Shown: positions 5,501 through 57,582, counted from the first letter of the stretch. The stretch: DNA of 64,000 nt from Myxococcales bacterium (GCA_014240165.1 JAAZXM010000017.1:2381-66380); one strand, 5' to 3'. Notes: generated by a model not told the origin, from the sequence alone. Program-made: numbers and translations.

Positions 5501-5541
5501 AGACGCCCGTTCGCATCAGCGAGCGGGCGTCTTTACTTTTG
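5501..5541. terminator. Bidirectional rho-independent terminator between convergent genes
   Basis: 14-bp stem AGACGCCCGTTCGC/GCGAGCGGGCGTCT (one G-U), loop ATCA, then TTACTTTTG. Sits between the stop at 5453 (+) and the stop at 5533 (-). Confidence 0.6.
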
Positions 5542-6363
5542 TGGAGCCCCGGTCGCCGAAGCGACTTCATCCAGGACCCCGGGCCAGATCGTCGCCCAGC
5601 AACAGCCGTGGTCGAAATCCGGATAGATCCGGGTGATGGCATTGGGCTGCCGGTGGATGGCGTCCCGGGTCAAGGTGGGGGGGACGCGCAGGTCCCGGCC
5701 GGCCAGCAGGTGAATCTGGATCACCGATGGCGAGAGCGGCGGCCGCTGAGCGGGGTCGAGGGATTCGATCAGGGGCGTGTAGCCGTGGTGGTCTGCCCAG
5801 CGTGTCGTGTCGAGGTTGCCCGCCAGGGTGATCACCGCCCGGGTTTCAGGGATCCGCTCGGCCATGAGCATGGCCAGGGCGCCGCCTCCGCTATGTCCTA
5901 TCAAGACCACGCCCGTAGCACCGGAAGCCATGCGTTCCGTCTCCAGAACGGCTACGAGGCTCGCTACGACATCTTCTCCGTAGCGTCCCACCGTCCAGGT
6001 CGATGGATCGCACGGGACCTCCGCTGCGTGCTGGCAGGGGCGTCCCAGCAGGACGCTTGGGGCGGGGTCAAGGGCCATCAGGCCCAGCATGATGGGTCGG
6101 TGGGGCGTGGGGTCAGGAGGCGAGTAGCGACTGGCTATGCGCGGGGAGGCGTCCCCTTCCAGGTAGACATGGAGCAGATCGGATTCGGCTCTTCCCTGGG
6201 ATCGGTAGACGTTCTGGCGGAAGCCCAGCCCTTGGACGACCTCGACGGAGAAGCCCAGATCTTCGGCCTGTCGGTCGAAACGCTGGCTGGGGGTGGCACA
6301 TGCCGAGAAGCCGGCGACTGTAATGGCCGAGAGAAATGCCGCACGGAATCGGGGCTGATCCAC
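5533..6363 (-). CDS. Alpha/beta-hydrolase fold lipoprotein
   Basis: Lipobox ...VAGFSAC. Nucleophile elbow GHSGGG (VVLIGHSGGGALAM). 276 aa. Confidence 0.8.
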   Translation of the reverse strand: MDQPRFRAAFLSAITVAGFSACATPSQRFDRQAEDLGFSVEVVQGLGFRQNVYRSQGRAESDLLHVYLEGDASPRIASRYSPPDPTPHRPIMLGLMALDPAPSVLLGRPCQHAAEVPCDPSTWTVGRYGEDVVASLVAVLETERMASGATGVVLIGHSGGGALAMLMAERIPETRAVITLAGNLDTTRWADHHGYTPLIESLDPAQRPPLSPSVIQIHLLAGRDLRVPPTLTRDAIHRQPNAITRIYPDFDHGCCWATIWPGVLDEVASATGAPQK

Positions 6364-6419
6364 CGTCTGAGGGTGTGGGAACGTAAAAGGGCTGGCAAGT
6401 GCCCAGGCCCTTTCTCAGG

Positions 6420-6872
6420 TCAATACTCGGGAACGTAGATTTCGCACGCGGCCTGATGCCCCCCGGCGAAGACCAGGAGCCGACCCAGGGCGATGTACTG
6501 GCCGATCATCAGCCCGAGTTCGGCGATTTCCGCCGGGCTGAAATGTTCGCCGAGTTCGGCCCGGAAGGCGGCATCGGCTGAGCGAAAGTCCAGCGCCACC
6601 TTTTCGGCAAAGCGAACGGCCAGCGCGTCACGGGGTTCGAGGCTGCGTTCGGCCTCAGGAAGGTGAATCTGCGCGATGGTTTCCTCGTCGAGTCCTTGAC
6701 GCGTCGCCGACGCGTAGCGTGCGAAGAGTCAGGTATCGCATTGGTTGAGCGCGGCGACTTTAAGCCGAGCCAGTTCCTTGATGCGCGCGGGGACCACGCC
6801 CTCATTATGTCCCTGTGCGAAGAAAGTGAAGAAGCGCTCGAAATGATCGGGGATGAGCTCCAAAAGATTCAT
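6420..6872 (-). CDS. AhpD-core / carboxymuconolactone decarboxylase family protein with in-frame UGA (probable selenocysteine, CxxU)
   Basis: ATG at 6872 with GGAGGG 6 nt upstream. The frame reads MNLLELIPDHF...KVAALNQCDT-UGA(6729-6731)-LFARYASATRQGLDEETIAQI...GHQAACEIYVPEY and stops at 6420-6422. The UGA sits at the second Cys position of the family CxxC motif. A hairpin lies 13 nt downstream. The track shows only the 5' 70-codon piece. Confidence 0.7.
6699..6715 (-). promoter_or_regulatory. SECIS-like stem-loop downstream of the in-frame UGA
   Basis: The mRNA reads ACGCGUC-GGC-GACGCGU: a perfect 7-bp stem with a G-containing apical loop about 21-23 nt 3' of the UGA. Confidence 0.55.
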
Positions 6873-6937
6873 CGTCTGCCCTCCATTGGGTTTTCTCTGT
6901 CGTCTGAGTCGCGCGGCTTTGGCGATACGCCGCGCGA

Positions 6938-7372
6938 TCAATCGTTTTCTGGAAGATAAGTCTGGAAGAGTTCGCCCATTTCGGCATCGGAGTGACTCGG
7001 CACCTTGTAATAGGTGCGAATGTTGACGTCGCCGTTGTCCTCGAAGCGATAGGTTTCGATGCTCAGGCCCAGTTGCTCACGCCCCCCGGACGTAAAGCGG
7101 TTCTCCAGGAGCCACGCAACCTCGTTGGCGCAGATGAAGAGGGAGCCGGGAGCAAAGCGGAAGTTCACGCTGGGTTGAAAGAGATCCCAGGAGTCGGCGC
7201 AGCAGAGTTGGAAGCCGACTTTTTCCGGCGTCCCCACCGGGTCGAGCATCCGAAACTCGCCTTTACCCACCGTGCGCCAGTTTGCGACCCAGGCGTCTTT
7301 GTCGCCGGCGTTCCAGAGTTTGGGGTAATTGTCCGCCCAATTCTTGAGCTCATCGAAGCTGGGGTAGGGCAC
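6938..7372 (-). CDS. SnoaL/NTF2-like small protein
   Basis: 144 aa, cytoplasmic, with the alpha+beta cone-like pattern (...LWNAGDKDAWVANW...VAWLLENRF...ETYRFEDNGDVNIRTYY). Call is by pattern only. Confidence 0.6.
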   Translation of the reverse strand: MPYPSFDELKNWADNYPKLWNAGDKDAWVANWRTVGKGEFRMLDPVGTPEKVGFQLCCADSWDLFQPSVNFRFAPGSLFICANEVAWLLENRFTSGGREQLGLSIETYRFEDNGDVNIRTYYKVPSHSDAEMGELFQTYLPEND

Positions 7373-7454
7373 CTGTCTTCCTCCTTTGGATTCAGCGATG
7401 GGTATCGCAAGAAATTTACTCGAATCCTGGAGCGAAGCCTATCTCGGGAGAGGC

Positions 7455-8456
7455 CTATCTCCCGGCTGTGCCGAATCGCGGCGGCGGCAGGATCATCTCC
7501 ACCTGGACGAAAAACCCCTGGTGGCTGACGCCGCCCTGGCCGTCCTCTGCGGCGATCCTGACCGGGTGCTCGCCCGAATTTTCGAGCGTGGCCTGCCAAC
7601 GCAACTCGCCGCTCTCGGCATCCAGGCTCATCCCCTTGGGCCCTTCTTCGAGTACGTAGCGGAGGGGGTCGTCATCTCGATCCGTGGCCTGAACGACGTA
7701 CACGAAGAGGCCAGACTCGTCCATGGACGGCGGGCGAGAGACGATCTCGGGGGGAGAGTTGCCGACACTGAAGGGGGCACTGGTGAGGGGAACGCTTTCG
7801 CTGGCGCCATCCGAAGCCCAAGCCTCGAGTTGGATCCGATCCCCTTTGCGCGACCGTCCGCGATCCAGGGAAGCGCCGCGTTCTCCCGAGGCTTGGCCGT
7901 TGATGATCCAGTTGTAGCGGTAGGAAAGGCGGTCTCCATCCGGGTCGTCCGCCACGGGCTTGCCCAGCCAGCGGCCCAGGGGGTCGCTCTCGCTATCCGC
8001 TGTCTGGATATTCACTTCTCTCATGGTCGGCCGACGATTGGCGATCCGGACGGCCAACTGGAAGGGCTGGGAATCCGCCTGGCCATCGCTGGCGATCACC
8101 TCCAGCGAGATGGAGTCGCCTTTTCGAGCCGAGGCGGGGACATCGAAGCTTCCGCCCGCGCTTTCTGCGGGCTGCCCTCTCAGGGACCAGCGGTAGAGGA
8201 GATGAATCGGATCGCCATCGGGGTCGAGGGCTTCGACGTGGGCGCGAAGGGTCCTGCCGGGCAATACATGATGGGGCTTGAACTCAACTGACCGTATCGT
8301 CGGCGGCCTGTTGTCGGCATCCGGGTCCATGCTCGCGCGTCCCGAAAGCGATCCGCCACTGGGTGTGCCTGTGGGCGAGTCTCCGCAGCCCGAAAGGAAA
8401 CCCAGGCACGAAAAGAGCACCGCGAGCGCCACTACGCGTGAGGGCGCTCTTCGCAC
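7455..8456 (-). CDS. Lipoprotein with three Ig/cadherin-like repeats, last gene of the pilus minor-pilin operon
   Basis: GTG start overlaps the upstream stop (TAGTG). Lipobox FLSGC. Three roughly 95-aa repeats each carry DPDGDP/DPDGDR/DRDDDP plus L(R/S)Y(R/V) motifs. Confidence 0.7.
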   Translation of the reverse strand: MRRAPSRVVALAVLFSCLGFLSGCGDSPTGTPSGGSLSGRASMDPDADNRPPTIRSVEFKPHHVLPGRTLRAHVEALDPDGDPIHLLYRWSLRGQPAESAGGSFDVPASARKGDSISLEVIASDGQADSQPFQLAVRIANRRPTMREVNIQTADSESDPLGRWLGKPVADDPDGDRLSYRYNWIINGQASGERGASLDRGRSRKGDRIQLEAWASDGASESVPLTSAPFSVGNSPPEIVSRPPSMDESGLFVYVVQATDRDDDPLRYVLEEGPKGMSLDAESGELRWQATLENSGEHPVRIAAEDGQGGVSHQGFFVQVEMILPPPRFGTAGR

Positions 8457-8800
8457 TATTCCGCGGCTCCATCCAGAACGGTGATTTTGACCATCTCCCA
8501 GCCAGCCGGCTTCTCGACCGCCTCGAATCGAATGAAGTCGATCTCATTCGTCGCCACCAGATCCTGCTCCGACTGCATCGCACCCCGAAGTTCGGCGAGA
8601 GGCACGAGAGCGCCTGAGGTTCGCCGGGCCTTGCAGCGAATGGGCACGTTATATGTCTCCTGATTGACCGTGATCGTTCGCTCGCCCGCGTTCACCTTGT
8701 CGACGGGTCCGTGGGCGATGCGCTTTTCAAGCGCTGCCGAAAGACTTGCGTCGAAGCAAAGAAGATACGCCATCGCGAGCCAGAAGAGACTTTTCTTCAT
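8456..8800 (-). CDS. Small secreted protein in the PilY2 position
   Basis: ATGA overlap with the pilY1 stop. 114 aa with signal peptide MKKSLFWLAMAYLLCFDASLSA. No recognisable domain. Confidence 0.65.
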   Translation of the reverse strand: MKKSLFWLAMAYLLCFDASLSAALEKRIAHGPVDKVNAGERTITVNQETYNVPIRCKARRTSGALVPLAELRGAMQSEQDLVATNEIDFIRFEAVEKPAGWEMVKITVLDGAAE

Positions 8801-11800
8801 TGGGTGACCTCCCGCCAGTAAAGGAGCGATCCGTCATCGAAATTGAGTGGCGGCGCGGCAATGCTCTCCAAGTCCGCTCCACTCTTCTCTATGTAGATTC
8901 GATTGTCCTCACCGTTGACTCCAACCGATATTTTGGGGTCGGTAGGCATACCCGCGCCGAGATCCACGCTGACAACCGGCTCCCCGAGGCTGTCGAAGAA
9001 AAGCGCTTGTCCGCAGTCTATGCGGAACGCGTAGAGGTCTCCGCTGCCCTTGGAGGTACACGGATCGCCCGTATCGTCAGGTGTGAAAGACCCAGCGAAA
9101 ATGTAGTGCAGGAAAATTTCCGCATTCGTGACGAATTTCTCGCCGTCGGCCACCTTGATGAAGAAGCCTCGCCCCGAGATATTTTCGCAGCTCGACGGAC
9201 CCAGGATTTCGGTGAGGTCCGACTCGGTGAGTGTGGGGAAGGGGGTTACGCTGAGTTCTTGAGGGTCGAGATCATTCATCGCATAGAAGCGATTGTTTTC
9301 ATCTTCTCCGGGCAAGCCCTCGAATCCGATATTCATGCGCTCGCCGCTTCCGAAGCCCAGGTGGAGCCTGCGGCCTACGAAAACCGCCTGGGGCGGCATG
9401 AAGAAACTCTTGTAGTAATTGGTGGATGGCGAAACCGCCGTAATCGGTGCTTGGAAAAAGACCTTGAAGGGCCAGGAGGGCTGAGAGTAGTCGCCTGAAG
9501 AGGAAGAGTCGTTGACCCGATCTTCGCCAAGCCCATTGAATACCCATTTGAAGATCTGTCCGCCCAGATCGCCGATGTAGAGCATGTCCGCGAAACCATC
9601 GAAATCAAGATCGAGGACGCCTGCCGTGCTCGGGAGTGCATAGGCCATTGACGACTGTGCGTCGGCAGCCCCGGCGTCGTAGCGCTTCATCGCGAGGAGT
9701 TCGCCGCTCGCGATATCGATCATGAGAATGGCACGCCCCGCGATGGCATTCTCGTCATAATTCGCATGGTCGTTGGGATCGCCCGTGCGGTCGTAGCCGC
9801 CCGAAACGATGGCGACCCATCGTTCAAAGCCGGCCCCTGAATTGTCATTCGAATCGATTTTGACCCTGACGCGGGTGATGATGGGTCGCGAAAAACTCTG
9901 CCCGAGATAGGGCAGGACCGATGTCGCAACCGCCGTGCTATCCGGGTCATTCTCATTCGGGAATTCCCAGAGATAGCCGGGATATGCAGCATCCGAAGGG
10001 TCCGTGATATCAAGAGCATAATAGGCGCGCCCACCTTGACGCATTCCGCCGACGAGGATCGTCCTCCATTCATCCGTGGACTTGGTGGTGTCCGTGTTGC
10101 TCGATCGGATCCAGGCGTCGACCACCTGGGGTGAACCGTCGACATAGTAGGTGCGTGAAGTCGGATCATCGACGGGAAGGTTCTTTATATTCTTCCTCGC
10201 TTCCCACGGCATGAACCCGAATAGCTCCGTGCCCGTTCCGTCGAGATAGACCGGGGGATTGACCGTTGTGTTGAGGGTTCCCGCGTCGAATGCATGCAGA
10301 AATCCATCGTTGGCGCCGCTATAGATCACGCGTTTCCGGAGTGCGAGATTGGTTTTGAAATTCTGGTAGGAGATATCGTTGAAGGTTGCCTTGGGAGCGG
10401 GCACTACGGCGGGAGCGGAATGAAAAATATCCCCGAGCCGCCAACTTCTCTCCACGCAAGTCGAGTCGGCGACTACCGTTGCGCCGGAGACACCGGTCCC
10501 GAACTCGCAGCCACGAACGTACGAGATGATTTCGTCCGCCAGGCCCTCTTCGGTCAGAGCATTCGAGCCCGGGTAGATTGGATTGGGGGAGGGGTCTGGA
10601 GCTGCGGCAAACGCGTCGACCGTCAGATCGGCAGCACCCAATGAATTATCGAAGGTCTCTCGGCCCGGGACTCCGCCCGTGAGCTGGGATACGTAGAGAT
10701 TCCGGCTGGCAGTGAGCGGGATCTCTTGGCCCGCGTCCCAATAGGGGAGCGCTGCCGGATTGGTCGGCCCACTGTTGCACTCTCCAGGGTCCGGGTCGAT
10801 GAAAGCACAGACCCCGCTCTGGCCGAAGACATCGCCCGCGGCATCGGTTCGGTAGGCCCGAAGGTGACCTTCCCAGAATGCGGTTTTCGCGGAGGGGAGA
10901 AAGAAACTCGTGTAGAAGCTGCCTCCTGCAGCGGTCCGCGTCGAAGGAACGGTGGAGGCAGTGAACGATTGCACCTTTTCAAGAATATCGTTGATCGAGC
11001 TGACCAGGCGAGTCCGGAGTTCGTCGGGGCTATTGCTGGTAAAGAAAAGCCCGTTTCCAACTTCCGCAGTCTTCTCCAGGAGAGAGTTGGCTTCCTCGTT
11101 GGTGGTAAAGCCAATTGTATAAACGTCGAGAGTTTGATCCCCCTCCATGTCTGGGCGGCAATCATTTTCGTGCATGAACTTCGCGACATCGTCGAGGTAA
11201 AGCCAGCTCGAGCCCCCGGGCTCCTCGACCTCTCCATCAGGGTTGTAGTCACCGATCAAAGACGAAAATTGGCTGAAGCCCGCCGCGGTATTGACCGGAT
11301 CTTCTGTTTCGAAGTCGTCCTTGGTGGGTTCACCGTCTGTGATGACGATGACAAAGTTTTTCTGACACGTGAATTCGATTGGGCTCGGAGGTACCAGCGA
11401 GAGATTGGATTGGTATAGGCCGCCGACGCCCGACGGAGTCAGTTTGTATCGGTAGAGAGGAAAGGTTCCTGAGGTTGCGCCCGCCGGAAGCTGAGTGGAG
11501 TCTCGGCTCATGAAATACGTGTATGACTGAAAGAGTGTCTCGGCCAGCGGGGTCCAGGTATCCGCCTTGGTGTTCAGCACCGAAGCTTCGAGATCGTTCG
11601 CGTGACTGGGGGTGTTGTCGTTGATCCCGACTTCTATATAGCCCCCGTTCGGGTCGTTCTCGTCGGCCCCGCGAAATACGGAAAGGCCAAACCGGATTTC
11701 CTTGCTTTCCAGGACCTCACACATCGTATCCAGCACGACTCGCTTGGCGGATGAGAGCCTGTTGAGCTGGTATTTCCCGTAGGTCGGCGATCCCGGACCC

Positions 11801-12276
11801 TGACAGATGCGAACGCCGTTGTTGTTGTCGTCGATTTCCGATTGGACCGTATTTTGCGAACTGTAGATCCAGTTCAGGTATTTACCCGAATACCAGGTGT
11901 AGCCATTGGATTGGGAGTCGTGATAGATGGTTCGGGTTCGGCCACAACGCGTAAGCGTCTTCGTGCTGCTCAGGTAATACGTGTAGCTCGAGGAATAGTA
12001 TGAGCAGTCGTATGTGGCGTCCGGATCGAAAGACGGATGCCAGACGATATGGTTCATCGAACCCGAGTTATCCAGCTGAATCAGGACGTTCGGAGAGACA
12101 GAAGATGTGAAGAGGAAGAGATCATCCTCTGTCTGTGCGAGAGCGGTGCCGCTCACGGCCAGCAGCAGAACCCCGGCCAAGAGGGCGAAGCGTTTCGCGA
12201 CGATTTCGCGCAATTCGTTCGTGCGCTCTTTGGTCGCCTTGGCGTTGAAATTTCCGAGTCGTCTTTTCGTGGTCAT
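8797..12276 (-). CDS. pilY1: Type IV pilus tip-associated adhesin PilY1 (vWA domain plus beta-propeller)
   Basis: Start MTTKRRLG... at 12276 (GGAG upstream). MIDAS-like LDNSGSM and VIVITDGEPTKDD (vWA). C-terminal PilY1 propeller with Ca-site-like DLDFDGFADMLYIGDLGGQIFKW. Confidence 0.9.
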   Translation of the reverse strand: MTTKRRLGNFNAKATKERTNELREIVAKRFALLAGVLLLAVSGTALAQTEDDLFLFTSSVSPNVLIQLDNSGSMNHIVWHPSFDPDATYDCSYYSSSYTYYLSSTKTLTRCGRTRTIYHDSQSNGYTWYSGKYLNWIYSSQNTVQSEIDDNNNGVRICQGPGSPTYGKYQLNRLSSAKRVVLDTMCEVLESKEIRFGLSVFRGADENDPNGGYIEVGINDNTPSHANDLEASVLNTKADTWTPLAETLFQSYTYFMSRDSTQLPAGATSGTFPLYRYKLTPSGVGGLYQSNLSLVPPSPIEFTCQKNFVIVITDGEPTKDDFETEDPVNTAAGFSQFSSLIGDYNPDGEVEEPGGSSWLYLDDVAKFMHENDCRPDMEGDQTLDVYTIGFTTNEEANSLLEKTAEVGNGLFFTSNSPDELRTRLVSSINDILEKVQSFTASTVPSTRTAAGGSFYTSFFLPSAKTAFWEGHLRAYRTDAAGDVFGQSGVCAFIDPDPGECNSGPTNPAALPYWDAGQEIPLTASRNLYVSQLTGGVPGRETFDNSLGAADLTVDAFAAAPDPSPNPIYPGSNALTEEGLADEIISYVRGCEFGTGVSGATVVADSTCVERSWRLGDIFHSAPAVVPAPKATFNDISYQNFKTNLALRKRVIYSGANDGFLHAFDAGTLNTTVNPPVYLDGTGTELFGFMPWEARKNIKNLPVDDPTSRTYYVDGSPQVVDAWIRSSNTDTTKSTDEWRTILVGGMRQGGRAYYALDITDPSDAAYPGYLWEFPNENDPDSTAVATSVLPYLGQSFSRPIITRVRVKIDSNDNSGAGFERWVAIVSGGYDRTGDPNDHANYDENAIAGRAILMIDIASGELLAMKRYDAGAADAQSSMAYALPSTAGVLDLDFDGFADMLYIGDLGGQIFKWVFNGLGEDRVNDSSSSGDYSQPSWPFKVFFQAPITAVSPSTNYYKSFFMPPQAVFVGRRLHLGFGSGERMNIGFEGLPGEDENNRFYAMNDLDPQELSVTPFPTLTESDLTEILGPSSCENISGRGFFIKVADGEKFVTNAEIFLHYIFAGSFTPDDTGDPCTSKGSGDLYAFRIDCGQALFFDSLGEPVVSVDLGAGMPTDPKISVGVNGEDNRIYIEKSGADLESIAAPPLNFDDGSLLYWREVTQ

Positions 12277-12278
12277 GA

Positions 12279-12776
12279 CTAGCTCCCCCACAATGCGGCT
12301 GCCGCCGCTTCGACCCGCGAATTCATCCCTCTCGGCTCTCTGCCCTCCACGTTGATGCGCCACAACTGCAGCTGGAATTTGGGTCCGTTTCCATTGACGT
12401 TCAGGCTCATGCCCGGCAGGGGCAGCGATCCCAGGTTTTCGATAGGGGTTGCCGCCTTCGGGTCGAGTTGAAAGCTCGGTTGTCCCATGGGGTAGTCACC
12501 GGAAACCCCGATGGAATTGGGGGCCAGGGTGGGTGTATTCGAGCCTGTCACCGAGACCAGAGCTGTCGCCAACCCCGCCTCCGCGGCCTGGAAGGCCACC
12601 CGATCACGCATCTGGACGCCTGCGACCTGCTGATCTCGCATGGTGCTTTCCATGGACGAGACCGCGAGCACCGAGACGAGCGCGAGGATCAGCATCACGG
12701 CGATCAAGGCGATGCCTGCTTCTCGGGGGCGACGATTGCGCCGGCCGATGAGAGATTGGGGGCCGAGTTGGTTCAT
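12279..12776 (-). CDS. pilX: Type IV pilus minor pilin PilX
   Basis: N-terminus ...EAGIALIAVMLILALVSVLAVSSMESTMRDQQVAG is typical of the PilX N-terminal domain. ATGA overlap with the pilW stop. Confidence 0.8.
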   Translation of the reverse strand: MNQLGPQSLIGRRNRRPREAGIALIAVMLILALVSVLAVSSMESTMRDQQVAGVQMRDRVAFQAAEAGLATALVSVTGSNTPTLAPNSIGVSGDYPMGQPSFQLDPKAATPIENLGSLPLPGMSLNVNGNGPKFQLQLWRINVEGREPRGMNSRVEAAAAALWGS

Positions 12777-13783
12777 GAGGTCGGCAACCTCGACCCCATA
12801 TTTCGGAGCGTCATGGTCGACGTGTAGGCCCGCCGCCTGAAACCGTCGCCCGTTGCCGCCGCAGTTCGGTTTTCCGAACTCTGGTAGCGGCCGTCTGTGT
12901 TGTCAGGGTCCTCGAGTCGGGTGCGTATCAGGAGGTTGGCCCTGACTTCACGGGCGGTGGAGATGTCCTCGTTGCTGGGGTCGAAGGTCGGACCGACGCC
13001 GTCGCCCCGATACTCGCCCGCATCCACGACGCGATCGCCGTCATCATCGAGAAAGATCGCGACTTGGAGGTCCTCGACGTCGTCGGCAACGACCGTGCTG
13101 TTGCGAAGAAGTTGGGTATTTGCGTTGATCTCATAGACATGAGCGGGCACCGCGACGAGATCGACCACGCTGGATCCCAGTACCAGCGGCGCGAGTGTGC
13201 CTGTCACGATCGTGACCGTAATCTGCACGGAACCGAGGGAGATGGCGTCGACCGTCCCGCAGGCGGTACCGCGGTCGGGATTTCCGGCATCGCTCACGAT
13301 CACCCCGGCGCCCACGCGAAAGTCGCTGTCCGCCGTGCCGTCGCCGTCGGTATCGTAAGCCGGGTCGGGGGAGCTGAATTCGATTACCAGCGTATCCAGG
13401 GAGAGAACCTGTGAGCCGGTGGAAATGTTGCTGGCCCCGCCCTGAATGCGCCCCGCCAGATCATGACGTTTCTCGTCGGTGGCATTGATTGCTCCGGCGT
13501 CGCTGACGTAGACAGTATCCGGCGCGTTCACACGATCGATGCCGCAAAGGGCCGCGGATTCCGGCACCATGAAGCCCGCATGGCGGAGGTCGGAATCGAG
13601 AAGGTTCCCCAGCAGTCGGCTGTTCTGCTGAACGTCGACGATCTGGCTGTTGACGCTTGCTTGTTTCTTCTGGGTCGAGAAGAAGTTCATGACCCCGATC
13701 ACGAGAACGGCCAGGAGAACCGTCACTATGGTGACTTCGATGAGGGTAAAACCCGCAATTTTTTGTGCGTGACGCGTACTCAT
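12773..13783 (-). CDS. pilW: Type IV pilus minor pilin PilW
   Basis: Prepilin motif G/FTLIEV (KIAGFTLIEVTIVTVLLAV). 336 aa. Position between pilV and pilX. Confidence 0.85.
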   Translation of the reverse strand: MSTRHAQKIAGFTLIEVTIVTVLLAVLVIGVMNFFSTQKKQASVNSQIVDVQQNSRLLGNLLDSDLRHAGFMVPESAALCGIDRVNAPDTVYVSDAGAINATDEKRHDLAGRIQGGASNISTGSQVLSLDTLVIEFSSPDPAYDTDGDGTADSDFRVGAGVIVSDAGNPDRGTACGTVDAISLGSVQITVTIVTGTLAPLVLGSSVVDLVAVPAHVYEINANTQLLRNSTVVADDVEDLQVAIFLDDDGDRVVDAGEYRGDGVGPTFDPSNEDISTAREVRANLLIRTRLEDPDNTDGRYQSSENRTAAATGDGFRRRAYTSTMTLRNMGSRLPTS

Positions 13784-14232
13784 CAGAGATTCTCTCGATT
13801 GAAACGAAGTGTGGTCGCCGCGACGGAGCGTGCTCGCCCGTCCGGCTCGGTCCAGTTGATCCGGATATCGATGGATCGCGTTTCGTCCGAAATTACGTCC
13901 TGGATCTGCCAGGAGGCGGTGTAGGCCTGTTCAACGGTTCCGCCTCGCCCATCGTCCACATTGGTGGAAAGGGTGACCGGCGCAGTCCAGGCCGTTGGGG
14001 CGAGGGCTGTCCAACTGGAGCCAACCAGTTGTTCGAGCTGGTTTTGCGCGATGAGCGCGCCTTGGCTCAGGTGGCGCCCGCTCTGATTTCCCTGGAGCGC
14101 CCGAAGCTGGGCCCCGGCAAGGGCCAATAGTCCCACCCCGAGGATCGTAAAGGCAATGGTGACCTCGATGAGGGAGAAGCCCGCTTGTCGACGGGTTTGT
14201 TTGGCGGCGGCCTTCTGCATCAGCTCTGCCAT
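13783..14232 (-). CDS. pilV: Type IV pilus minor pilin PilV
   Basis: Prepilin motif QAGFSLIEVTIAFTILGVGLLAL. Start is ATG 14232 or ATG 14220 (the latter overlaps the upstream stop as TGATG). The track ORF is over-extended to 14409. Confidence 0.85.
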   Translation of the reverse strand: MAELMQKAAAKQTRRQAGFSLIEVTIAFTILGVGLLALAGAQLRALQGNQSGRHLSQGALIAQNQLEQLVGSSWTALAPTAWTAPVTLSTNVDDGRGGTVEQAYTASWQIQDVISDETRSIDIRINWTEPDGRARSVAATTLRFNRENL

Positions 14233-14897
14233 TGCCCGGCCCCCGGATTCCATAGATGAATGCGTATACCACCGAGGGGATTGAGGACGATGCCGAAATC
14301 CCGGCTGCCATTGGTGAGGTAGACGCCCCCGTTGCCACTGCCGAGTTGCCCCATGGCGCAGGCGGCATCGAAGCCCAGAGGGCGGCCGTCGGGCATGAAA
14401 GCCACCCACGTGGCCGCCGTTCCCGACGGGGTTGCGAAGCTCGAACCGGTTGCGCTTCCAATGGCAGTGGAATCGCCCGGCGCCTTGGCGCCGGCGGATG
14501 CTGTGAATCCCCAGCTCACGCCGGGTGCCGCGGTGAGGACGCTGGTCTCCTCGCCGGCATCGATGAGGCAGTTCTGGCCTGGGCTGCCCAGGGGGCCGTC
14601 ATCGAGAAGCAGAACGGGCACGGCGCTTCCGCTTGAGTCGACGAGGGTCGTGCCCCCAGGATCTCCGGCGCCCCCAGCAGCGAGGAATACGATCTGGACG
14701 CTTTCTTTGCGCACGGCCTCCGTCGCCGCAAAGCGGTAGAGGTCCGCCAACGACCGCGCAAAAGCGGTCGTCCGCTCGTTCTCCTGCCACCGGCTCAGGC
14801 TCGAATAGGCGATTCCGAGTAGACCTGAGACGATGGCAAGCACGACGGCGACCTCGATCAGCGTCATGCCGCCTCTTGCTTTCTCTTGCCGTTCCAT
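14220..14897 (-). CDS. GspH/FimT/FimU-family minor pilin
   Basis: Start MERQEKARGG/MTLIEVAVVLAIV at 14897 (AAGGAA 8 nt upstream). Prepilin cleavage/methylation motif. First gene of the operon. Confidence 0.8.
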   Translation of the reverse strand: MERQEKARGGMTLIEVAVVLAIVSGLLGIAYSSLSRWQENERTTAFARSLADLYRFAATEAVRKESVQIVFLAAGGAGDPGGTTLVDSSGSAVPVLLLDDGPLGSPGQNCLIDAGEETSVLTAAPGVSWGFTASAGAKAPGDSTAIGSATGSSFATPSGTAATWVAFMPDGRPLGFDAACAMGQLGSGNGGVYLTNGSRDFGIVLNPLGGIRIHLWNPGAGQWQS

Positions 14898-20405: not shown

Positions 20406-23216
20406 CTAGAAGGTCACCTGTAAGGTCACGCCAAATGTGCGCGGGTCGCCAATGGCGTAGATGACTGATTGTCGGAACCTCGCCAGATTGATGGCGTCCA
20501 GACGATATTTCTTGTCCGCCAGGTTCCTGACCCAACCCGCGATCTCCAACCGGGAATCGGCAGTTCGAAAGGCGAGTCGAAAGTTCATCAGCCAAAGGGG
20601 AGCCTGGCCGATCTCGGGGTTGTCCTCCGGGCCAAAAAAGACCTGGTCCTTGAAACTCCAGTCGAAGCGCGGCGTCAGGGTTCCGTAGTTGGATTCGAGG
20701 GGCCACGACAAATAACCCGAGAAGGCGAATTCTGGAGCGTTGACCAGTTGGTTCCCGGAGTAGTCGCGGGCGCTTATCGTTTGCAAGCCGTCGCCATCCA
20801 GTTCGGTTAGTGAGTTCGCGAACTCCAGATACTTGCCACGCAAGTAGCCGAAGGAGCCCAGGAATTCCATGTTCTCCAGAAACTCGGGGACAAGACCTCG
20901 AAGTGGGAATGCCCTGATCTCCAACTCCGCTCCGTAGATCCTGGCTTCGTTCGCGTTGATGAGTTGCGCGATGGGGACCGCATTTTGGGTATTCCGCAGG
21001 GTGAAGATCTGGATATCGCGATAGATATAGTAGAAGGCAGAGAAATTGAACATGAACGAATTGTCCAGCCAAGTTGTTTTCGCACCGAATTCGAATGCAT
21101 CCACTTCTTCGGGCTTCACCGGCTCGGTGAGTAGATCGCCTTCATCGTCGGTAAAGCGAGGGTTCAATATCGCGCCGTTGAGGTGTGGTCCCTTATATCC
21201 TCGAGAGTATTTGATATAGACAATGTTATTTTCGCGCGGCTTGTAGTTGAAGCTGAGATCCCCACTTAGGCCCGTATCCGATACTGTGCCCGGCGGCGGC
21301 GTGACCACCCCGGGTGGAACGAGGTTTCCACTATACGGATCGAGCCGGCTGGTCTCGAGGTTCATGGTCTTGTTTTCGTAGTTCAGTCGAGCGCCGCCAT
21401 CGACAGAGAACAACTCATTGGGGGACCAACTCGCCCACCCGTAGACCGCCGCGTAATGGGTACCAAGGTGGTAACGCTGGATCGTGGTATTCGTGACCTT
21501 ATCCAGGTCGAAGATATTCGAAACATTGAGATCTTCGTAGAGGTAGCTGGCGCCGGTCTCCAGGGCGAGGGGTCCGTCGCTGTCGTATATCAGTTTGAAC
21601 TCCTGGCTCAGTTGCCACGCGTCGTTCTCAAGGGTCGGCTCCAAGGAGATCAAGGGGCTTGCATCCAGGTTGGTACGGACTCGTCGTTTATTGCCTTCGA
21701 AACCCGAGATCGTCTTGAAGAGCAAGCTGTGGTCTGCCCGGATCGAACCCGTCAGGCTCGTTCCGTAGAGATCAAGCTTTTCGGGATCGTTGCGGTTGTA
21801 GCTGCCCGCATGGGGGTCGCCTTCGAGAGGGTCGACGTATCGAATCGTTGCGAAGCCAGAATCGTCGAAAGTGATCACCGCGTTATCGGGGTCGGAGTAG
21901 CCGAGCGCGTCGCGGTGTGTGAAGCTGATGAACTCCCCGTCGCTGGATTGACGGGCTCCCTTTCCTTGAAATTGCCGAGATCCTCCGTTGTTCTGACCAC
22001 CATGGATGTTGAGGATCCAGTCGGTTCGTTCATTGGGCTGCCAGCGCATCAGGCCGCGAACCGCCCAATTGTCCACGTTGTTCACCAGGCGGTCCACCGG
22101 CGGAGGCCCAGGAGCGGGGTTGTCGGGAAAATTCGGAAAACCTACCCAGCCTGGAGTCCATCCGGGCCCACTCAATCCTGCGGGATTGATGCCGGTGGCA
22201 AGAGGCTCGAGCGGGAGCATCGTATCCGAATTGAAACAGCCGCGAGACGCTCCGTAGGGGTCGGCGTGAGGCGTCACCGCTGTGCTGTTTTGGGGGCTGG
22301 TTCCGGGCGAGGTGGCGTTGTATTCGCCATGAACTCGGTAGTCAAAGTCGGCTGCCGCATTCAGGCCGGGTGGTGGCGTGGGCGGTGGTCGGCGGTCCTT
22401 CCAACGCGCGTCGCCGCAGCGGTTGAGCGTGGTCCCGTCGCGCTGACGAAAGACCCCCGCGATTCGGACCGTCAGCTCCTCGCTTAGGGGAACCTCAAAG
22501 GCGCCCTCGGCCTCGATGTTGTTGTAGTTTCCGTAGGTTATTTTGGCCTGCCCGTTCACGTCACCAGTGGGCTTACGGGAAACGACTCGAATCGCCCCCG
22601 CAGAAGCATTTCGGCCGAAGAGTGTTCCCTGGGGTCCACGGAGAACTTCAACCTGCTGAACGTCGAAGAGTTGGGACAATTGCCCGGCCGGAGAGTTCAT
22701 GTAGATGTCGTCGTTGTAGACGGCGACTGACGATGCCGAGTTGGCGTTGAAGTCGCGAAGCCCGACCCCGCGGATGAAGAGGGTGGGGTTTGAGGCGGCG
22801 AAGACGGTCCGAATCTCGAGATTGGGTGTGAACTGGGCGATGTCGGCAATGTTCTGGGCACCCAGGGCATCCAGGTACTCGGCGTCGAATGAGGCGACCG
22901 ATACCCCGAGATCCTGCAGGTTCTGCGAACCGGCGCTGGAGGTGACGACGATCTCCTCGATGGAGCGGAACTGCTCATCGAGCAAGGGCATGTCATCCGG
23001 GGCGGATGGTTCTTCCCTTGCTTCGGCAGGAGAAATTTCGACGTTCCCGCCCGACTCTCCAGCGGGGCCGGGAACACTCTCCCGCTCAGTAGCGACAGTC
23101 GCCGGTTCGGGGGCGGGGTCGCTCGCTGACTCCTGGGCGCTGGCCTCTCCGGTCGTCAATAGGGCTGCCAGAGTTACGGCTAAGAGCCACCACTTGGAGA
23201 TCATTCGCCCGTTCAT
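20406..23216 (-). CDS. TonB-dependent outer-membrane receptor (paralog 1)
   Basis: Signal peptide, acidic linker, plug (EEIVVTS...RGVGLRDFNANS...VEVLRGPQGTLFGRNASAGAIRV), long barrel, terminal ...TLQVTF. Confidence 0.93.
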   Translation of the reverse strand: MNGRMISKWWLLAVTLAALLTTGEASAQESASDPAPEPATVATERESVPGPAGESGGNVEISPAEAREEPSAPDDMPLLDEQFRSIEEIVVTSSAGSQNLQDLGVSVASFDAEYLDALGAQNIADIAQFTPNLEIRTVFAASNPTLFIRGVGLRDFNANSASSVAVYNDDIYMNSPAGQLSQLFDVQQVEVLRGPQGTLFGRNASAGAIRVVSRKPTGDVNGQAKITYGNYNNIEAEGAFEVPLSEELTVRIAGVFRQRDGTTLNRCGDARWKDRRPPPTPPPGLNAAADFDYRVHGEYNATSPGTSPQNSTAVTPHADPYGASRGCFNSDTMLPLEPLATGINPAGLSGPGWTPGWVGFPNFPDNPAPGPPPVDRLVNNVDNWAVRGLMRWQPNERTDWILNIHGGQNNGGSRQFQGKGARQSSDGEFISFTHRDALGYSDPDNAVITFDDSGFATIRYVDPLEGDPHAGSYNRNDPEKLDLYGTSLTGSIRADHSLLFKTISGFEGNKRRVRTNLDASPLISLEPTLENDAWQLSQEFKLIYDSDGPLALETGASYLYEDLNVSNIFDLDKVTNTTIQRYHLGTHYAAVYGWASWSPNELFSVDGGARLNYENKTMNLETSRLDPYSGNLVPPGVVTPPPGTVSDTGLSGDLSFNYKPRENNIVYIKYSRGYKGPHLNGAILNPRFTDDEGDLLTEPVKPEEVDAFEFGAKTTWLDNSFMFNFSAFYYIYRDIQIFTLRNTQNAVPIAQLINANEARIYGAELEIRAFPLRGLVPEFLENMEFLGSFGYLRGKYLEFANSLTELDGDGLQTISARDYSGNQLVNAPEFAFSGYLSWPLESNYGTLTPRFDWSFKDQVFFGPEDNPEIGQAPLWLMNFRLAFRTADSRLEIAGWVRNLADKKYRLDAINLARFRQSVIYAIGDPRTFGVTLQVTF

Positions 23217-23240
23217 GTGGTTGTGGTTCCCCGGAGCCTT

Positions 23241-23285
23241 TAGATCTCTCTAATCTTAGATCTCTCTAATCAGATCTCTCTAAAT
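23241..23285. repeat. Three direct copies of AGATCTCTCTAA between the small exported-protein gene and TonB receptor 1
   Basis: Copies at 23242-23253, 23258-23269 and 23272-23283. On the coding (minus) strand they read TTAGAGAGATCT, 26-69 nt upstream of the receptor ATG (23216). Confidence 0.85.
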
Positions 23286-23304
23286 GGAGGGTCCCACTTG
23301 ACGC

Positions 23305-23625
23305 CTAGCTACCGAAGTCTCTTCCGAGAGGGGCGTTGACCAGATTGTCGAGGGGCATTCTGAGGAAAACGTCATACGCATTGTCGAGGCTTTCCATTCC
23401 TCCCGGGGCCGAAACCAACGCAGCTGGAACCAGAATCACGGCCCCTAAAACAACGCCCATTGCACCCAGCGGCCGGAGAACCATGGCATCAAAAGCTCGG
23501 TCTGCCTGGCTTGGCCCGCCCTCTTCCTGGGCAAAGGCTTGAGGAGTCCCCGAGGCCAGTAGCAAAGCGATGATTAGGGAGACTCTCAGCAGGGCTCGCA
23601 GCGTGCCTGAAAAATTAATTTTCAT
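23305..23625 (-). CDS. Small exported protein, unknown family
   Basis: 106 aa. Signal peptide ...LLLASGTPQAFAQ, then an internal hydrophobic stretch (RPLGAMGVVLGAVILVPAALVSAPGG). Confidence 0.6.
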   Translation of the reverse strand: MKINFSGTLRALLRVSLIIALLLASGTPQAFAQEEGGPSQADRAFDAMVLRPLGAMGVVLGAVILVPAALVSAPGGMESLDNAYDVFLRMPLDNLVNAPLGRDFGS

Positions 23626-23656
23626 GGGTAAAAATCCTCTTTCTATTTTCTAAACC

Positions 23657-24607
23657 CTACCAGGTCCAATTGGGCAGCCAGGAAAAACGAATGCCGCCTC
23701 CGCCTTGGGCGATGAAAGGGTCAGGTTCGATCGAGTAGGTTGTCAGGTTGGCCGGGTCCGAGTCCACGGTCGAGAAAACCTGTTGACCTCCGCTCACGAT
23801 CCAGGCGAAACGGGTCTCGAGAAAGAGGCTGACCCGTAGATCGCGCCATCGGTACACGAGTGCGTCGCCTTGAAGGCTGGCGCCGACGGCGTGCGTCGTG
23901 GACGAGGAGACAGGCGAGGAGTAGACCGTCTCCCCTCTGCCCTGAATATCACGTGAAGTGGTTCCGGTCATCGAGAAAGATTGGCCCAGGTAGTCGACGG
24001 CCGTTCGCAGTCGTACCTGTCTCTGCCATGCGGGGATTACGATTTGAAAGCCTGTACCCACGTACCACTGGGAATTGATTTGAGTTTCAACCCGGTTCCG
24101 AATGGTGCAACCTGTAATAGGGTCAAACGGATTTTCGCTGATACCGCAATTGGCCCCAATCACCGCTGACGGAACCGGTGGGCTTAGCCCGGGGGAATAG
24201 CTGTCAATGGATCTGTAGGCAGTGAATTCTTCCTCGAGGATGACCTGGGCCCCAACTTGAGCAAAGATCCGAGGCTCGAGTTCGCTCTCGAACAGCGCAG
24301 GCGTAGCAAGAGATACATCGAATCGGAAGCCAGGGCTGGCCAGACCGTCCGTGGTCGAATTCGCGGAGTTTGCGCCCAGACCGCTGATGACTCGGGCGTC
24401 TTGATCCTGAACGTGCATGAGGAATCCGATGCTCAGTGAAGGGATCCACAGATCGGGGCCGTCCAAGTTGGGCTCGGCGACAGTCGGGCTCGCCTCTTCC
24501 TCTTCCTCATCGGCCCATACTGGCGCGCACACCAACGCCACGGCGATCAGGGCCAGGGCCCCGAGTAGAGTTGGGCGGCTAAGGCCACCACGTAACCAGC
24601 GTTTCAT
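23657..24607 (-). CDS. Putative outer-membrane beta-barrel protein, unknown family
   Basis: Start MKRWLRGG... at 24607 with a signal peptide, an acidic DEEEEE stretch, alternating-residue strands, and the terminal aromatic ...IRFSWLPNWTW. Confidence 0.65.
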   Translation of the reverse strand: MKRWLRGGLSRPTLLGALALIAVALVCAPVWADEEEEEASPTVAEPNLDGPDLWIPSLSIGFLMHVQDQDARVISGLGANSANSTTDGLASPGFRFDVSLATPALFESELEPRIFAQVGAQVILEEEFTAYRSIDSYSPGLSPPVPSAVIGANCGISENPFDPITGCTIRNRVETQINSQWYVGTGFQIVIPAWQRQVRLRTAVDYLGQSFSMTGTTSRDIQGRGETVYSSPVSSSTTHAVGASLQGDALVYRWRDLRVSLFLETRFAWIVSGGQQVFSTVDSDPANLTTYSIEPDPFIAQGGGGIRFSWLPNWTW

Positions 24608-24680
24608 TCGGGATTGCACCTCAACGCTCCTCCTGCCTGGATCTCGAATTCGCTGCGGTTCACAGCGAGTGGGGCTGTTC

Positions 24681-25913
24681 CTACTTGTTTCGTTTCTTGC
24701 TGGTCTCTTCATGATACTTCGTGAGCACTTTTTCGGAGAGGTGCTCTTCGTTGTGCGCTACCCACTGGCCTGCTGCGCTGGGCTCTCGACGTGCCCAGTT
24801 CATGAGCGGCAAGAGGATTGCCTTCTCCCGCTCACGGGCGTCGGGAACCCGCAATGCCCACTTGAGAGATTCTTCTGGCGGGCCGGAAGCGTAGAAATGT
24901 GAAAGGGCGAAAATCGCCGGCTGCATTCCCTCGGTCGCCATGTTCTCTCGCAGATAGGGGTAGGCCTTTTCAGGCTGCTTTTTAAGAAGCGTATACGCTG
25001 CTTCGCGAACCGCGTGTCCCCGGGCTTCCGAGGGAGGCTGTGAGAGTATCCAGGCAAAGCCCGCATCGATATCTCTCAGCACATAGGTGCTTCCAACTGC
25101 AGCAATCGAACCGCTTTCGACCCAGGGCTTGATGGGCTGCGTGTCGAACCACTCGGCGGCTTGCAAATAATCTAGACGGACGAGCAACTCCAAGGTGGCG
25201 GTGAAGGCCGCCGTTTTGAGCCCGTTGGGCGCATCTCGCGGCATCGCGTCCGTCCACCCCATGAGAATTTCGGGATCGCGTCGCACCATTTCCAGCATCA
25301 TGCGGACCATCAGAAATTGCCGTGTGTCGCGCTCCCCGGGTTCATCCGCGGGCATTTCGCCGAGAAGTTCGATGGCCACCTTGCTCTCACCGGCCATCCC
25401 TGACCCTTGGATAATGTTGTTACGGACAATCTTGAATTTCTCTTCAGAACTCGGAATCGTTCGCAGAAACGCAAGCGCTTCCTCGTCTCCCCCAAGCGCA
25501 ACCCAGGTGGCGATCGACTGGGCCGCCGCGTTTCGTCCCAGCGAGCCCGTTTGGGCGAGTGCCCACTCTACAGCGGCCTGTCTGTCAACACTCGTCCAGG
25601 CGCTGACGATGGGGTCGGATTCGCATCGGCCCACCAGCGCATAGGCCTTCTGCAGGGCGATACCCGCGCCAGCGGCGTTCTCGGCGTTTAGTTGGGATGC
25701 GGCCGCGGATAGTGAGGTCAACCTCGCAAAGGGATCGGGCTTCGAGAAAGCCTCGGTTAGCCTTCCCTCAAGCTCATCTGCGCTCAGTTGGGTTGCGGAT
25801 TCAGTGGGCCGCTGATCTGCACTCTCACAAGCAAAGGCAAAGACGATCACTCCCGTCAAAACAGCGACTTGCGCCGAAAGCTTCTTCGAATGCAGCAGAA
25901 TACGCGCGATCAT
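24681..25913 (-). CDS. Helical-repeat lipoprotein, unknown family
   Basis: Lipobox VFAFAC. 410 aa, predicted all-alpha (HEAT/ARM-like by eye). 2-nt gap after the upstream receptor gene. Confidence 0.7.
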   Translation of the reverse strand: MIARILLHSKKLSAQVAVLTGVIVFAFACESADQRPTESATQLSADELEGRLTEAFSKPDPFARLTSLSAAASQLNAENAAGAGIALQKAYALVGRCESDPIVSAWTSVDRQAAVEWALAQTGSLGRNAAAQSIATWVALGGDEEALAFLRTIPSSEEKFKIVRNNIIQGSGMAGESKVAIELLGEMPADEPGERDTRQFLMVRMMLEMVRRDPEILMGWTDAMPRDAPNGLKTAAFTATLELLVRLDYLQAAEWFDTQPIKPWVESGSIAAVGSTYVLRDIDAGFAWILSQPPSEARGHAVREAAYTLLKKQPEKAYPYLRENMATEGMQPAIFALSHFYASGPPEESLKWALRVPDAREREKAILLPLMNWARREPSAAGQWVAHNEEHLSEKVLTKYHEETSKKRNK

Positions 25914-25915
25914 GC

Positions 25916-28690: not shown

Positions 28691-28746
28691 TAGAAGTCGA
28701 TCCTCCGTGACTACCTAAACAACTGCTTCTCGCATGGGTCGAAAAC

Positions 28747-30156
28747 TCATTCGACGGAATACCCGAGTGCTCGAAGCTGGCGCAAGTGCATTTCGTCAAT
28801 TTCTACCTCGGGCGCACCGCCTTCCCATGGTGTTCCCGATTCAAGATGATGCTGGGCCTGTTCCCGAAGTCTCTCCAAATCGTTGGAGTGTGACTCGGCC
28901 AAGTTCCTCACTTCGCCGGGATCGGCGACAATGTCAAAAAGTTGATCCAGGTCTTGGTCGTCCGTGTCGTGGATCAAGCGCAGATTTCCTTCCCGGACGG
29001 CAACGATGGTGGATGGGGCCTCTTCGAGTTTTCCCCAATTTCTGTCCAACTGGGCAAAGCCCAAATCCCGGGCACGAAGCGCTTCCGGCTCCAGATCCTT
29101 CTCTTCATCGAGAAGGAGCGGTAGGCGGGAAATTCCATCGACGTCAGGGGGACCCGAGATCCCTAGCATGTCTAGTACAGTTGGCCAAATGTCGATGTTC
29201 TGAGTCCGGCTGTAGACCACCGCGGGCGGGTTTAGCTTGAAGGGCAGGCTAATGATGAAGGGCGTCAGAACCACCTCCGGATACAGGTCCCGCGCGTGTC
29301 CCTCGCTGCCGTGTTCGCCGAAGGCCTCGCCGTGATCGGACGCCACCACGATGACCGTCTTCTTTGCGAGGTCCATTCGGTACAGCGCCATCAGCAGTTC
29401 GCCGAGCTGGCTGTCGGTCCAAAGTATTGAATTATCATAGGAATCCGAATAGGAGTTCCCGAAAATCGCAGTGTTCTCGGTGGATATATATTGGTGCACG
29501 TCCATCATGTGCAGATAGAGAAACCAGCGCTGGTCGCTGTGGGCTCGAATGAATTCCATGGCAGAGAAGATCACATCGATGTCCGTCCCATCGATTCGGC
29601 CCGCTCGGGCCTTCTGCCTCATATCAGCCGGTGCCTGCTGGCCGCCGGGCGTCTGGTAGATCTCGAACCCCTGGGAGAAGCCGAAATTGGGGGCCACCCA
29701 GCCATTTCTCCAGATGCCCGCGGTGACGTAGCCCGCGTCTGCGAAGAGTTCGGCAGGGGTCTCGGCTTCGTCCGCAAGGGCGTCCACGTGTTGGACGACA
29801 TCGGTGCGGACGGGGTAGAGGCCCGTCCAGAGTGAAGCCATGGAGGATTTTGTCCAGGAAGACTGGGCGCGGTTCTCCGCGAAGCGGATTCCCGTGAGGG
29901 CCAGGTAGTCCAGCGCCGGGCTCGTTTCGCGATCGTAGCCATAGGAGCGGAGGCGATCGGCACGGAGGGTATCGATCAGCACGAACAAGACGTTGATATC
30001 GTCTCGCTCGCGCAACGTTCGGAGGTCCTCCACGGTCCCCGTGGGCCGGTCGTCGGGGTTCTCATCTCCGCCGCCCCAAATCAGGTAGGCCCCCACCAGG
30101 AAGGCCGCAGCGATCAGTAGCCCGACCAAGCCCTGTTTGCCCCGATTTGCCGCCAT
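28747..30156 (-). CDS. Membrane-anchored sulfatase-fold (alkaline-phosphatase superfamily) enzyme, Thr-type
   Basis: N-terminal TM helix. Metal-site motif VLFVLIDTLRADRLRSYGY. The nucleophile region SSWTKSSMASLWTG has Thr where type I sulfatases have the C/S of CxPxR. The start overlaps the upstream stop (TGATG). Confidence 0.85.
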   Translation of the reverse strand: MAANRGKQGLVGLLIAAAFLVGAYLIWGGGDENPDDRPTGTVEDLRTLRERDDINVLFVLIDTLRADRLRSYGYDRETSPALDYLALTGIRFAENRAQSSWTKSSMASLWTGLYPVRTDVVQHVDALADEAETPAELFADAGYVTAGIWRNGWVAPNFGFSQGFEIYQTPGGQQAPADMRQKARAGRIDGTDIDVIFSAMEFIRAHSDQRWFLYLHMMDVHQYISTENTAIFGNSYSDSYDNSILWTDSQLGELLMALYRMDLAKKTVIVVASDHGEAFGEHGSEGHARDLYPEVVLTPFIISLPFKLNPPAVVYSRTQNIDIWPTVLDMLGISGPPDVDGISRLPLLLDEEKDLEPEALRARDLGFAQLDRNWGKLEEAPSTIVAVREGNLRLIHDTDDQDLDQLFDIVADPGEVRNLAESHSNDLERLREQAQHHLESGTPWEGGAPEVEIDEMHLRQLRALGYSVE

Positions 30157-57573: not shown

Positions 57574-57582
57574 AGTTCGCCC

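Follow-up and report, generated by a model that had tools for sequence, protein, structure and literature searches.

A 64,000-nucleotide stretch of DNA from a Myxococcales bacterium (GCA_014240165.1, JAAZXM010000017.1:2381-66380; the whole stretch is hereafter the window) carries, at positions 6420-6872 of the minus strand, a reading frame for an AhpD-like protein of the carboxymuconolactone decarboxylase (CMD) superfamily that is interrupted by an in-frame TGA. With a probability of about 0.9, we consider this frame to be one intact gene in which the UGA is a selenocysteine (Sec) codon served by a Sec insertion sequence (SECIS) hairpin, and its product to be a thiol/selenol oxidoreductase. 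An earlier note, made from the window sequence, had proposed a CxxU selenoprotein cut short by open reading frame (ORF) calling, and comparison of the gene with its relatives bears this proposal out in nearly every particular.

The predicted coding sequence, 6420..6872(-), comprises 150 codons, with Sec at position 48, and a TGA stop at 6420-6422. It begins with an ATG at 6872-6870, 7 nt upstream of which a Shine-Dalgarno-like GGAGG (6880..6884, minus strand) can be read from the sequence, and the homologues share the Met-Asn start. Translated from this ATG, the minus-strand frame reads MNLLELIPDHFERFFTFFAQGHNEGVVPARIKELARLKVAALNQCDT upstream of the TGA; the ORF list stops at 6729 after ...ALNQCDT, and these codons 1-47 (6732..6872), ending ...ALNQ-C45-D-T, are the stretch reported by ORF callers. 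Past the TGA at 6729-6731 the translation stays open for 102 stop-free codons, LFARYASATRQGLDEE...ACEIYVPEY, up to the TGA at 6422-6420, and the read-through product thus has 47 + 1 + 102 = 150 residues. Codons 49-150 (6423..6728), which would be made only if the UGA is decoded, hold a conserved ELGxMIGQY helix. The GC content at codon positions 1/2/3 is 0.64/0.32/0.68 before the TGA and 0.75/0.44/0.74 after it; both are coding-like, and the GC3-rich codon usage that the note had described does continue. The note had placed the end of the called ORF, the interrupting and final TGA codons and a hairpin 13 nt 3' of the UGA at 6699-6715, and all of these positions proved right. Its view that the ORFs listed over 6420-6728 are noise stands with one exception, a 59-residue ORF at 6420-6599(-), which lies in the true frame and is the tail of this gene.

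When U was replaced by C, the 150-residue product matched the Pfam CMD family PF02627 at 35.5 bits (cut-off 23, E = 1e-8) over residues 8-90, that is, across the UGA, and the 47-residue N-terminal piece alone fell below the cut-off. A protein search returned about 20 full-length homologues of 150-198 residues, about 40 C-terminal fragments, mostly of 85-95 residues and beginning shortly past the UGA column, and eight N-terminal fragments, every one of which ends ...C-D-T. The homologues align end to end at 64-79% identity, and their similarity runs over the codons downstream of the UGA too, as it should in a gene read through. The full-length Myxococcota proteins read L-N-G-C-N-L-C-L-F-A-R-Y, with the second Cys exactly in the UGA column (C-N-L-C versus C-D-T-U); in PA0269 from Pseudomonas aeruginosa, too, the residue in exactly this column is the second Cys of CxxC, in keeping with the proposal that the UGA takes the place of the second redox Cys. 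On related contigs, both fragments are called side by side in one frame, and public gene calls split the relatives into pieces of about 47-86 and about 86 residues, which is the fate that had been foreseen for the gene in standard pipelines.

The spread of the TGA was then examined by a scan of GTDB, using one genome per species and keeping the best 80 loci. Among these, the codon in the Sec column was TGA at 69 loci and TGC at 10, and at one (L058), which meets a contig end, it could not be read. Of the 69 TGA loci, 44 belong to metagenome-assembled genomes (MAGs) of Myxococcota or 'Deltaproteobacteria' at 51-81% identity, all but one above 65%. The other 25 form a distant clade (L066-L090) at 38-50% identity, which usually has the motif C-F-T-U-L-N-A-R-F and is drawn from Pseudomonadales and other Gammaproteobacteria, Binatia, Rokubacteriota and one member of the Desulfobacterales. 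The TGC loci come from four Myxococcota/'Deltaproteobacteria' MAGs, one further 'Deltaproteobacteria' MAG, Baekduia and Novosphingobium/Sphingomonadaceae. The relatives are largely marine (TARA, TMED and ALOHA MAGs). One further locus, of the close relative P0001 (L092:777-1259, GCA_044232445.1, on a single 1.7-kb contig), has a real CGA (Arg) in the Sec column and an intact hairpin; the CGA is one transition away from TGA and is explained either by an inactivating mutation of very recent date or by a read error. A single in-frame stop, taken as the end of a fragment by standard callers, is also what a pseudogene or fragment would display if a nonsense mutation or an error of sequencing or assembly had created the TGA. 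However, the same TGA is present in 69 independent species-level genomes, and no frameshifts or extra stops were seen downstream of it in the relatives.

The codons after the UGA evolve like those before it. In all 55 of the TGA loci of the clade closest to the window gene (hereafter the close clade), no stop interrupts the frame for 102-106 codons past the TGA. Mean pairwise divergence at codon positions 1/2/3 was 0.20/0.16/0.46 upstream of the UGA and 0.19/0.15/0.45 downstream; contrary to what is expected of a pseudogene, the frame past the UGA is unbroken and is subject to purifying selection as strong as that on the part before it. Over codons +1 to +5 the values were 0.04/0.05/0.44, meaning that the synonymous sites are free and the amino acids nearly fixed. 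These divergence profiles demonstrate, as far as comparison of sequences can, that the part after the UGA is translated and under purifying selection. Because codons +1 to +5 are conserved well before any re-initiation site, the profiles exclude not only a pseudogene but also a split gene, in which a 47-residue N-terminal peptide and a re-initiated C-terminal protein would be made separately, perhaps as two parts of an AhpD-like fold. Gene callers do find starts for a downstream ORF of about 86 residues in many relatives, but these 'starts' vary from one relative to another. The first in-frame start after the UGA in the window is a GTG at 6599, 43 codons on, whereas the amino acids encoded by codons +1 to +43 are conserved, and a split would cut the CxxC motif in two. 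We therefore regard two separate small proteins as extremely improbable.

Downstream of the UGA, a 13-nt spacer (6716..6728, codons L49, F50, A51 and R52 and the first base of Y53) leads to the hairpin ACGCGUC-GGC-GACGCGU at 6699..6715(-), with its 5' arm at 6709-6715, its apical loop at 6706-6708 and its 3' arm at 6699-6705. Under the published model of a bacterial SECIS (bSECISearch, Zhang and Gladyshev 2005), the loop has 3-9 nt and lies 16-37 nt from the UGA, the upper stem has 4-16 bp, the energy is -7.5 kcal/mol or lower, and G is present in the first two positions of the loop, in most cases with G or U after it (PMC13188914). The window hairpin lies within every one of these limits, with a 3-nt GGC loop that supplies G-G, a stem of 7 bp, a loop 20 nt after the UGA and an energy, for the hairpin alone, of -9.1 to -9.6 kcal/mol. 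Compared with the bacterial SECIS consensus, it is very compact, with its loop of only 3 nt. The SECIS of E. coli fdhF has a bulged U, and the window hairpin is without one.

Conservation of the hairpin was assessed in the close clade. Of its 46 distinct Sec-form sequences, 44 form all seven base pairs of the stem and two form six, and the GGC loop is invariant; a perfect stem occurs in none of the 10 Cys forms. Synonymous sites within the stem are frozen, with Ala+6 encoded by GCG in 45 of 46 sequences and Arg+10 by CGT in 43 of 43, while codon choice upstream of the stem is free (GCC, GCA, GCT and GCG for Ala+3; CGC, CGG and CGT for Arg+4). Accordingly, third-position divergence is about 0.45 outside and 0.15 inside the stem. 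The stem variants ACGCGCA/UGCGCGU, AUGCGCA/UGCGCAU, ACGCACC/GGUGCGU and ACGCGCC/GGCGCGU alter the peptide and keep the pairing. In the alignment of the 46 sequences, 99.4% of the cells are paired and four of the seven pairs are doubly changed, with no one-sided change; none of 500 shuffles reached the observed value, and slid registers were 1-57% paired. RNAalifold recovered the same helix.

The distant clade has a stem of different sequence, UUUCCAUC-GGC-GAUGGAAA, at the identical offset and with the same spacing and loop; the two Binatia loci have GGU or GAU loops. When both clades were combined (51 sequences), six of the seven core pairs displayed compensatory double substitutions, covering 108 cells, which again none of 500 shuffles equalled. 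These results bear on the remaining part of the pseudogene explanation, in which the hairpin would be a by-product of the codons for Y-A-S-A-T-R. The Cys-form locus L059, which has the same YASATR peptide, retains six of the seven pairs, so that the palindrome is partly peptide-derived; yet L059 breaks the stem at a synonymous site, which shows that the peptide does not dictate the palindrome. Moreover, the freezing of synonymous sites is confined to the stem, the compensatory changes preserve base pairing even though they alter the peptide, and the distant clade combines another peptide and another stem with the same geometry. The comparative data already refute a pseudogene or fragment, to which we attach almost no credence. 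The hairpin, which the earlier note had called SECIS-like, fits the published SECIS description, and its conservation through compensatory changes is restricted to genes with the TGA; by this pattern of substitution it is evidently under selection at the RNA level and goes with the TGA.

The base following the UGA is C in the window and in 63 of 70 distinct Sec-form sequences. In E. coli, UGA-C is the weakest termination context. RNAalifold also proposed a 4-bp helix, GCGA/UCGC, enclosing the UGA (window 6729-6740 with 6721-6724), which we rejected as probably meaningless because its sequence shows little variation and part of its pairing is lost in the distant clade. A scan of the window with Rfam at gathering thresholds matched no family, this SECIS included.

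We next examined the family, fold and active site of the predicted protein. A search of the PDB with a profile of the family retrieved PA0269 (2ijc/2o4d/7xw1) and Atu0492 (2gmy), with N-G-C-x-x-C aligned on N-x-C-x-x-C/U. Glu33 (6774-6776), Cys45 (6738-6740) and Sec48 (6729..6731) align with Glu36, Cys48 and Cys51 of PA0269, respectively. An AlphaFold model was made of P0003, the closest Cys homologue, which is 68% identical to the window protein. The model (predicted local distance difference test score, pLDDT, 87; predicted template modelling score, pTM, 0.84) is all-helical, with eight helices, and has the motif between helices 29-43 and 46-58; in Foldseek comparisons its template modelling (TM) scores against the AhpD-like structures 2gmy, 7xw1, 2ijc and 6k40 were 0.76-0.82. 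The window gene is accordingly predicted to encode an all-helical AhpD-like fold. The AhpD-like family has been defined structurally by a CxxC motif on the second helix of a helix-turn-helix and a Glu on the first, together with a relay His four positions (+4) beyond the second Cys (His55 of PA0269, His137 of Mycobacterium tuberculosis AhpD), which is called invariant and acts in proton relay (PMC3141380). The helix-turn-helix with the Glu and the CxxC positions was found here, and the His was not. Instead, Arg52 (6717-6719) occupies the +4 position in the motif C-x-x-[C/U]-x-x-A-R-Y/F and is invariant in the Sec and Cys forms of both clades; all aligned solved AhpD-like proteins (PA0269, Atu0492 and 2oyo) have the relay His in this column. 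In addition, a C-terminal Cys is conserved in both clades, in the context ...AACEIYVP in Myxococcota and ...P[KR][FY]C[PA]T in the distant clade. In the window protein this is Cys143 (6444-6446), a possible third redox or resolving residue; the pLDDT of the model in this region is about 59.

Several observations weigh against the interpretation of the gene as an AhpD-like selenoprotein. First, the hairpin is only suggestive when judged on the window sequence: of the 1780 TGAs in the window, 17 (0.96%) precede a hairpin of SECIS geometry whose stem consists of 7 or more uninterrupted Watson-Crick pairs, and the fold of a single 71-nt sequence was not significant (z = -0.9). For this reason we relied on covariation, and the comparative data make the case decisive. 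Second, no tRNA-Sec was found in the 64-kb window, where ARAGORN detected no tRNA gene, and a Pfam survey of about 39 long window ORFs revealed no selA, selB or selD. A search of 1.4 Mb of related flanks together with the window found no SelA, SelB or SelD motif and no tRNA-Sec either, a result that is uninformative rather than negative, with unvalidated motifs and flanks that were fetched as random stretches. Third, two heuristic scans for other UGA-interrupted genes in the window found none: apart from antisense frames, they returned a single same-frame gene junction, at 53093; the second scan was weak and missed the present gene too. Fourth, the sole NCBIfam match above threshold was the generic AhpD core (TIGR00778, ahpD_dom, 28.8 versus a cut-off of 27.8). 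The NCBIfam AhpD-type (seleno)protein models NF041047 (GSU3128 family; 19.5 versus 110) and NF053654 (YciW-related; 27.4 versus 310) share the AhpD-core domain with CxxU and scored far below their cut-offs, as did TIGR04169 (24.4 versus 120) and NF041537 (10.7 versus 510). The clade thus has no dedicated selenoprotein model, and PGAP therefore leaves the gene in fragments. Finally, since the relay His is replaced by Arg, AhpD-type peroxidase chemistry would be an analogy here.

The lack of visible Sec machinery in the window and in the 1.4 Mb of related flanks would also suit a UGA that is decoded, but not as Sec, either by near-cognate or suppressor read-through (to Trp, Cys or Arg) or through reassignment of UGA, with the hairpin as a generic stimulator. 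One public database does give Trp for the TGA of a relative, P0002 (L091:73-573, JGI 3300051642). Both P0001 and P0002 had been candidates for full-length versions with a sense codon; the DNA of P0002, however, has TGA with an intact hairpin, and the Trp arose from translation by a code in which TGA is Trp. In the window, by contrast, TGA is the normal stop of many long ORFs, including this gene itself, so that the standard genetic code applies and the codon is not reassigned. Furthermore, the column is Cys, and never Trp, in all 10 homologues with a sense codon, the geometry and the G-G loop fit the model of a SelB-dependent SECIS exactly, and Sec-containing members of this protein family are well established (PMC1088965, PMC2398784). 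Decoding as another residue is thus, in our judgement, very unlikely. We infer the Sec-decoding trait of this genome itself from the comparative signature.

We likewise infer that the inserted residue is Sec, that its insertion follows the SelB mechanism and that the protein has peroxide- or disulfide-reducing chemistry. When the UGA enters the A site, the SelB.GTP.Sec-tRNA(Sec) complex would bind the apical part of the 7-bp GGC-loop hairpin and deliver Sec in competition with release factor 2, helped by the weak UGA-C termination context, after which translation would run on for 102 codons to yield the 150-residue protein. Its redox centre, C45-D-T-U48, would lie where one helix begins, and Glu33 would lie on the helix before it. 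In M. tuberculosis AhpD the second Cys, Cys133, forms the mixed disulfide with AhpC and is therefore the attacking residue (PMC6626918); Sec48 would accordingly replace the attacker, and Cys45 would be the likely resolving residue, for a selenenylsulfide. The label 'peroxide or disulfide reductase' applies to the gene product by analogy. The gene has no conserved neighbour and no ahpC beside it. It is also possible, and in our view unlikely, that the clade with C-x-T-U-x-x-A-R-[Y/F] represents a functionally distinct subfamily of selenoenzymes rather than an AhpD-type reductase of AhpC, one that has gone unrecognised because pipelines split it. Such a subfamily might, as one possibility, be a stand-alone selenol/Arg peroxidase resembling the Cys/Arg pair of peroxiredoxins; another possibility is a reductase of a different substrate, and the structural neighbours include the CMD-fold debrominase Bmp8.

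Selenoproteins of the AhpD type are not new, as the earlier note had acknowledged. In the Sargasso Sea data, CxxU AhpD-like proteins (COG2128) accounted for 27 sequences, and four further CxxU sequences had a CMD domain (PMC1088965). In the Global Ocean Sampling (GOS) data, 'AhpD-like 1', with 299 sequences, ranked fourth in abundance among prokaryotic selenoprotein families, and 'AhpD-like 2' (PF02627) had 70 (PMC2398784). Recent reviews include CxxU AhpD-like selenoproteins. The window gene resembles these marine-metagenome proteins in family, in the Sec at the second position of CxxU, in its widespread Cys homologues, in a SECIS immediately 3' of the UGA whose apical loop contains G, and in the largely marine sources. 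As clues to the GOS subfamily, PF02627 was matched, and the JGI name of relatives, 'alkylhydroperoxidase family enzyme', is the wording of COG2128. By contrast, neither Myxococcota nor Pseudomonadales, Binatia and Rokubacteriota, nor Arg in place of His, is named in the two metagenome papers as consulted here (PMC1088965, PMC2398784). A literature search returned no relevant work on selenoproteins in Myxococcota.

Among proteins of solved structure, PA0269 and Atu0492 are alike to the window protein in size (about 145-153 residues), in the helical fold and in the helix-turn-helix with Glu and CxxC, but they have Cys for Sec and His for Arg at +4 (followed by Tyr or Phe here), and the identity is 20-26%. 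M. tuberculosis AhpD (1knc) shares the CxxC on a CMD core, with Cys133 at the position of Sec48; however, it is two-lobed, has 177 residues and carries the motif near its C terminus, and the structural match is weak (E about 1.7, TM 0.58). In M. tuberculosis, ahpD adjoins ahpC, whereas no ahpC is adjacent here, and an AhpC/AhpD system of the mycobacterial type was accordingly not found among the neighbouring genes.

The immediate neighbours of the gene encode a 144-residue protein with no Pfam match and an alpha/beta hydrolase. The order of genes for a 114-residue protein, an immunoglobulin (Ig)-domain protein, the 144-residue protein, the AhpD-like protein, the alpha/beta hydrolase and an autotransporter (window 5533-8800) is common only to L011:2286-7072, from the Myxococcales MAG UWMA-0336, the nearest relative found; elsewhere no neighbour is conserved. 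Seven nucleotides past the true stop of the AhpD-like gene lies a stem-loop resembling a terminator, AAAGGGC...GCCCUUU followed by U (6386..6413, minus strand; -18.6 kcal/mol, z = -2.46), an assignment of low confidence. A consensus scan for terminators and promoters over 6200-7600 had no match, and it did not see this stem-loop because of the short U-tract.

The Pfam survey of the long window ORFs disclosed no obvious redox partner; the families found include ETF-QO, an O-antigen-ligase-like protein, an autotransporter, PilY1/PilW, P450, PfkB, TonB receptors, a sulfatase and RND/MMPL pumps, among others. A cluster for the type IV pilus tip and minor pilins occupies 8797-14598(-), with a 1232-residue PilY1-domain protein, a PilW-like protein and N-terminal methylation motifs, and just downstream of it, at 7455-8800(-), are genes for an Ig-domain lipoprotein and the 114-residue protein. 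Two TonB-dependent receptors adjoin a sulfatase at 20406-30411(-), and a large protein with an FGE-sulfatase domain is encoded at 45996-48626(+); the TonB receptors and sulfatases suggest that sulfated polysaccharides are taken up and degraded. An HlyD/AcrB RND efflux pair is located at 48798-53095(+), where the AcrB stop, TGA 53093, is followed by the same-frame ATG of a K+-channel-like gene. At 57448-62297(+), two tandem MMPL-family transporters follow a sigma-54 response regulator.

The gene belongs to an established and abundant family of marine CxxU AhpD-like selenoproteins, known since 2005, and the present findings leave knowledge of Sec decoding, and of AhpD-like selenoproteins in general, unchanged. 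What is modestly new is the mis-annotation in at least 69 species-level genomes, the two unrelated stems that share one geometry and the Arg in place of the relay His. The gene and its relatives, from at least 69 species, have been deposited as two 'hypothetical' fragments or mistranslated; with a dedicated model, hundreds of records would be put right and the selenoproteome counts for Myxococcota and marine Gammaproteobacteria would rise. The hairpin provides a compact and well-supported bacterial SECIS (7-8 bp, GGC loop, 20 nt), and its two sequence-unrelated stems are useful for SECIS models. The substitution of Arg for His beside Sec is a clue to how this subfamily differs from classical AhpD, and the gene implies the use of selenium by this Myxococcota-like organism.

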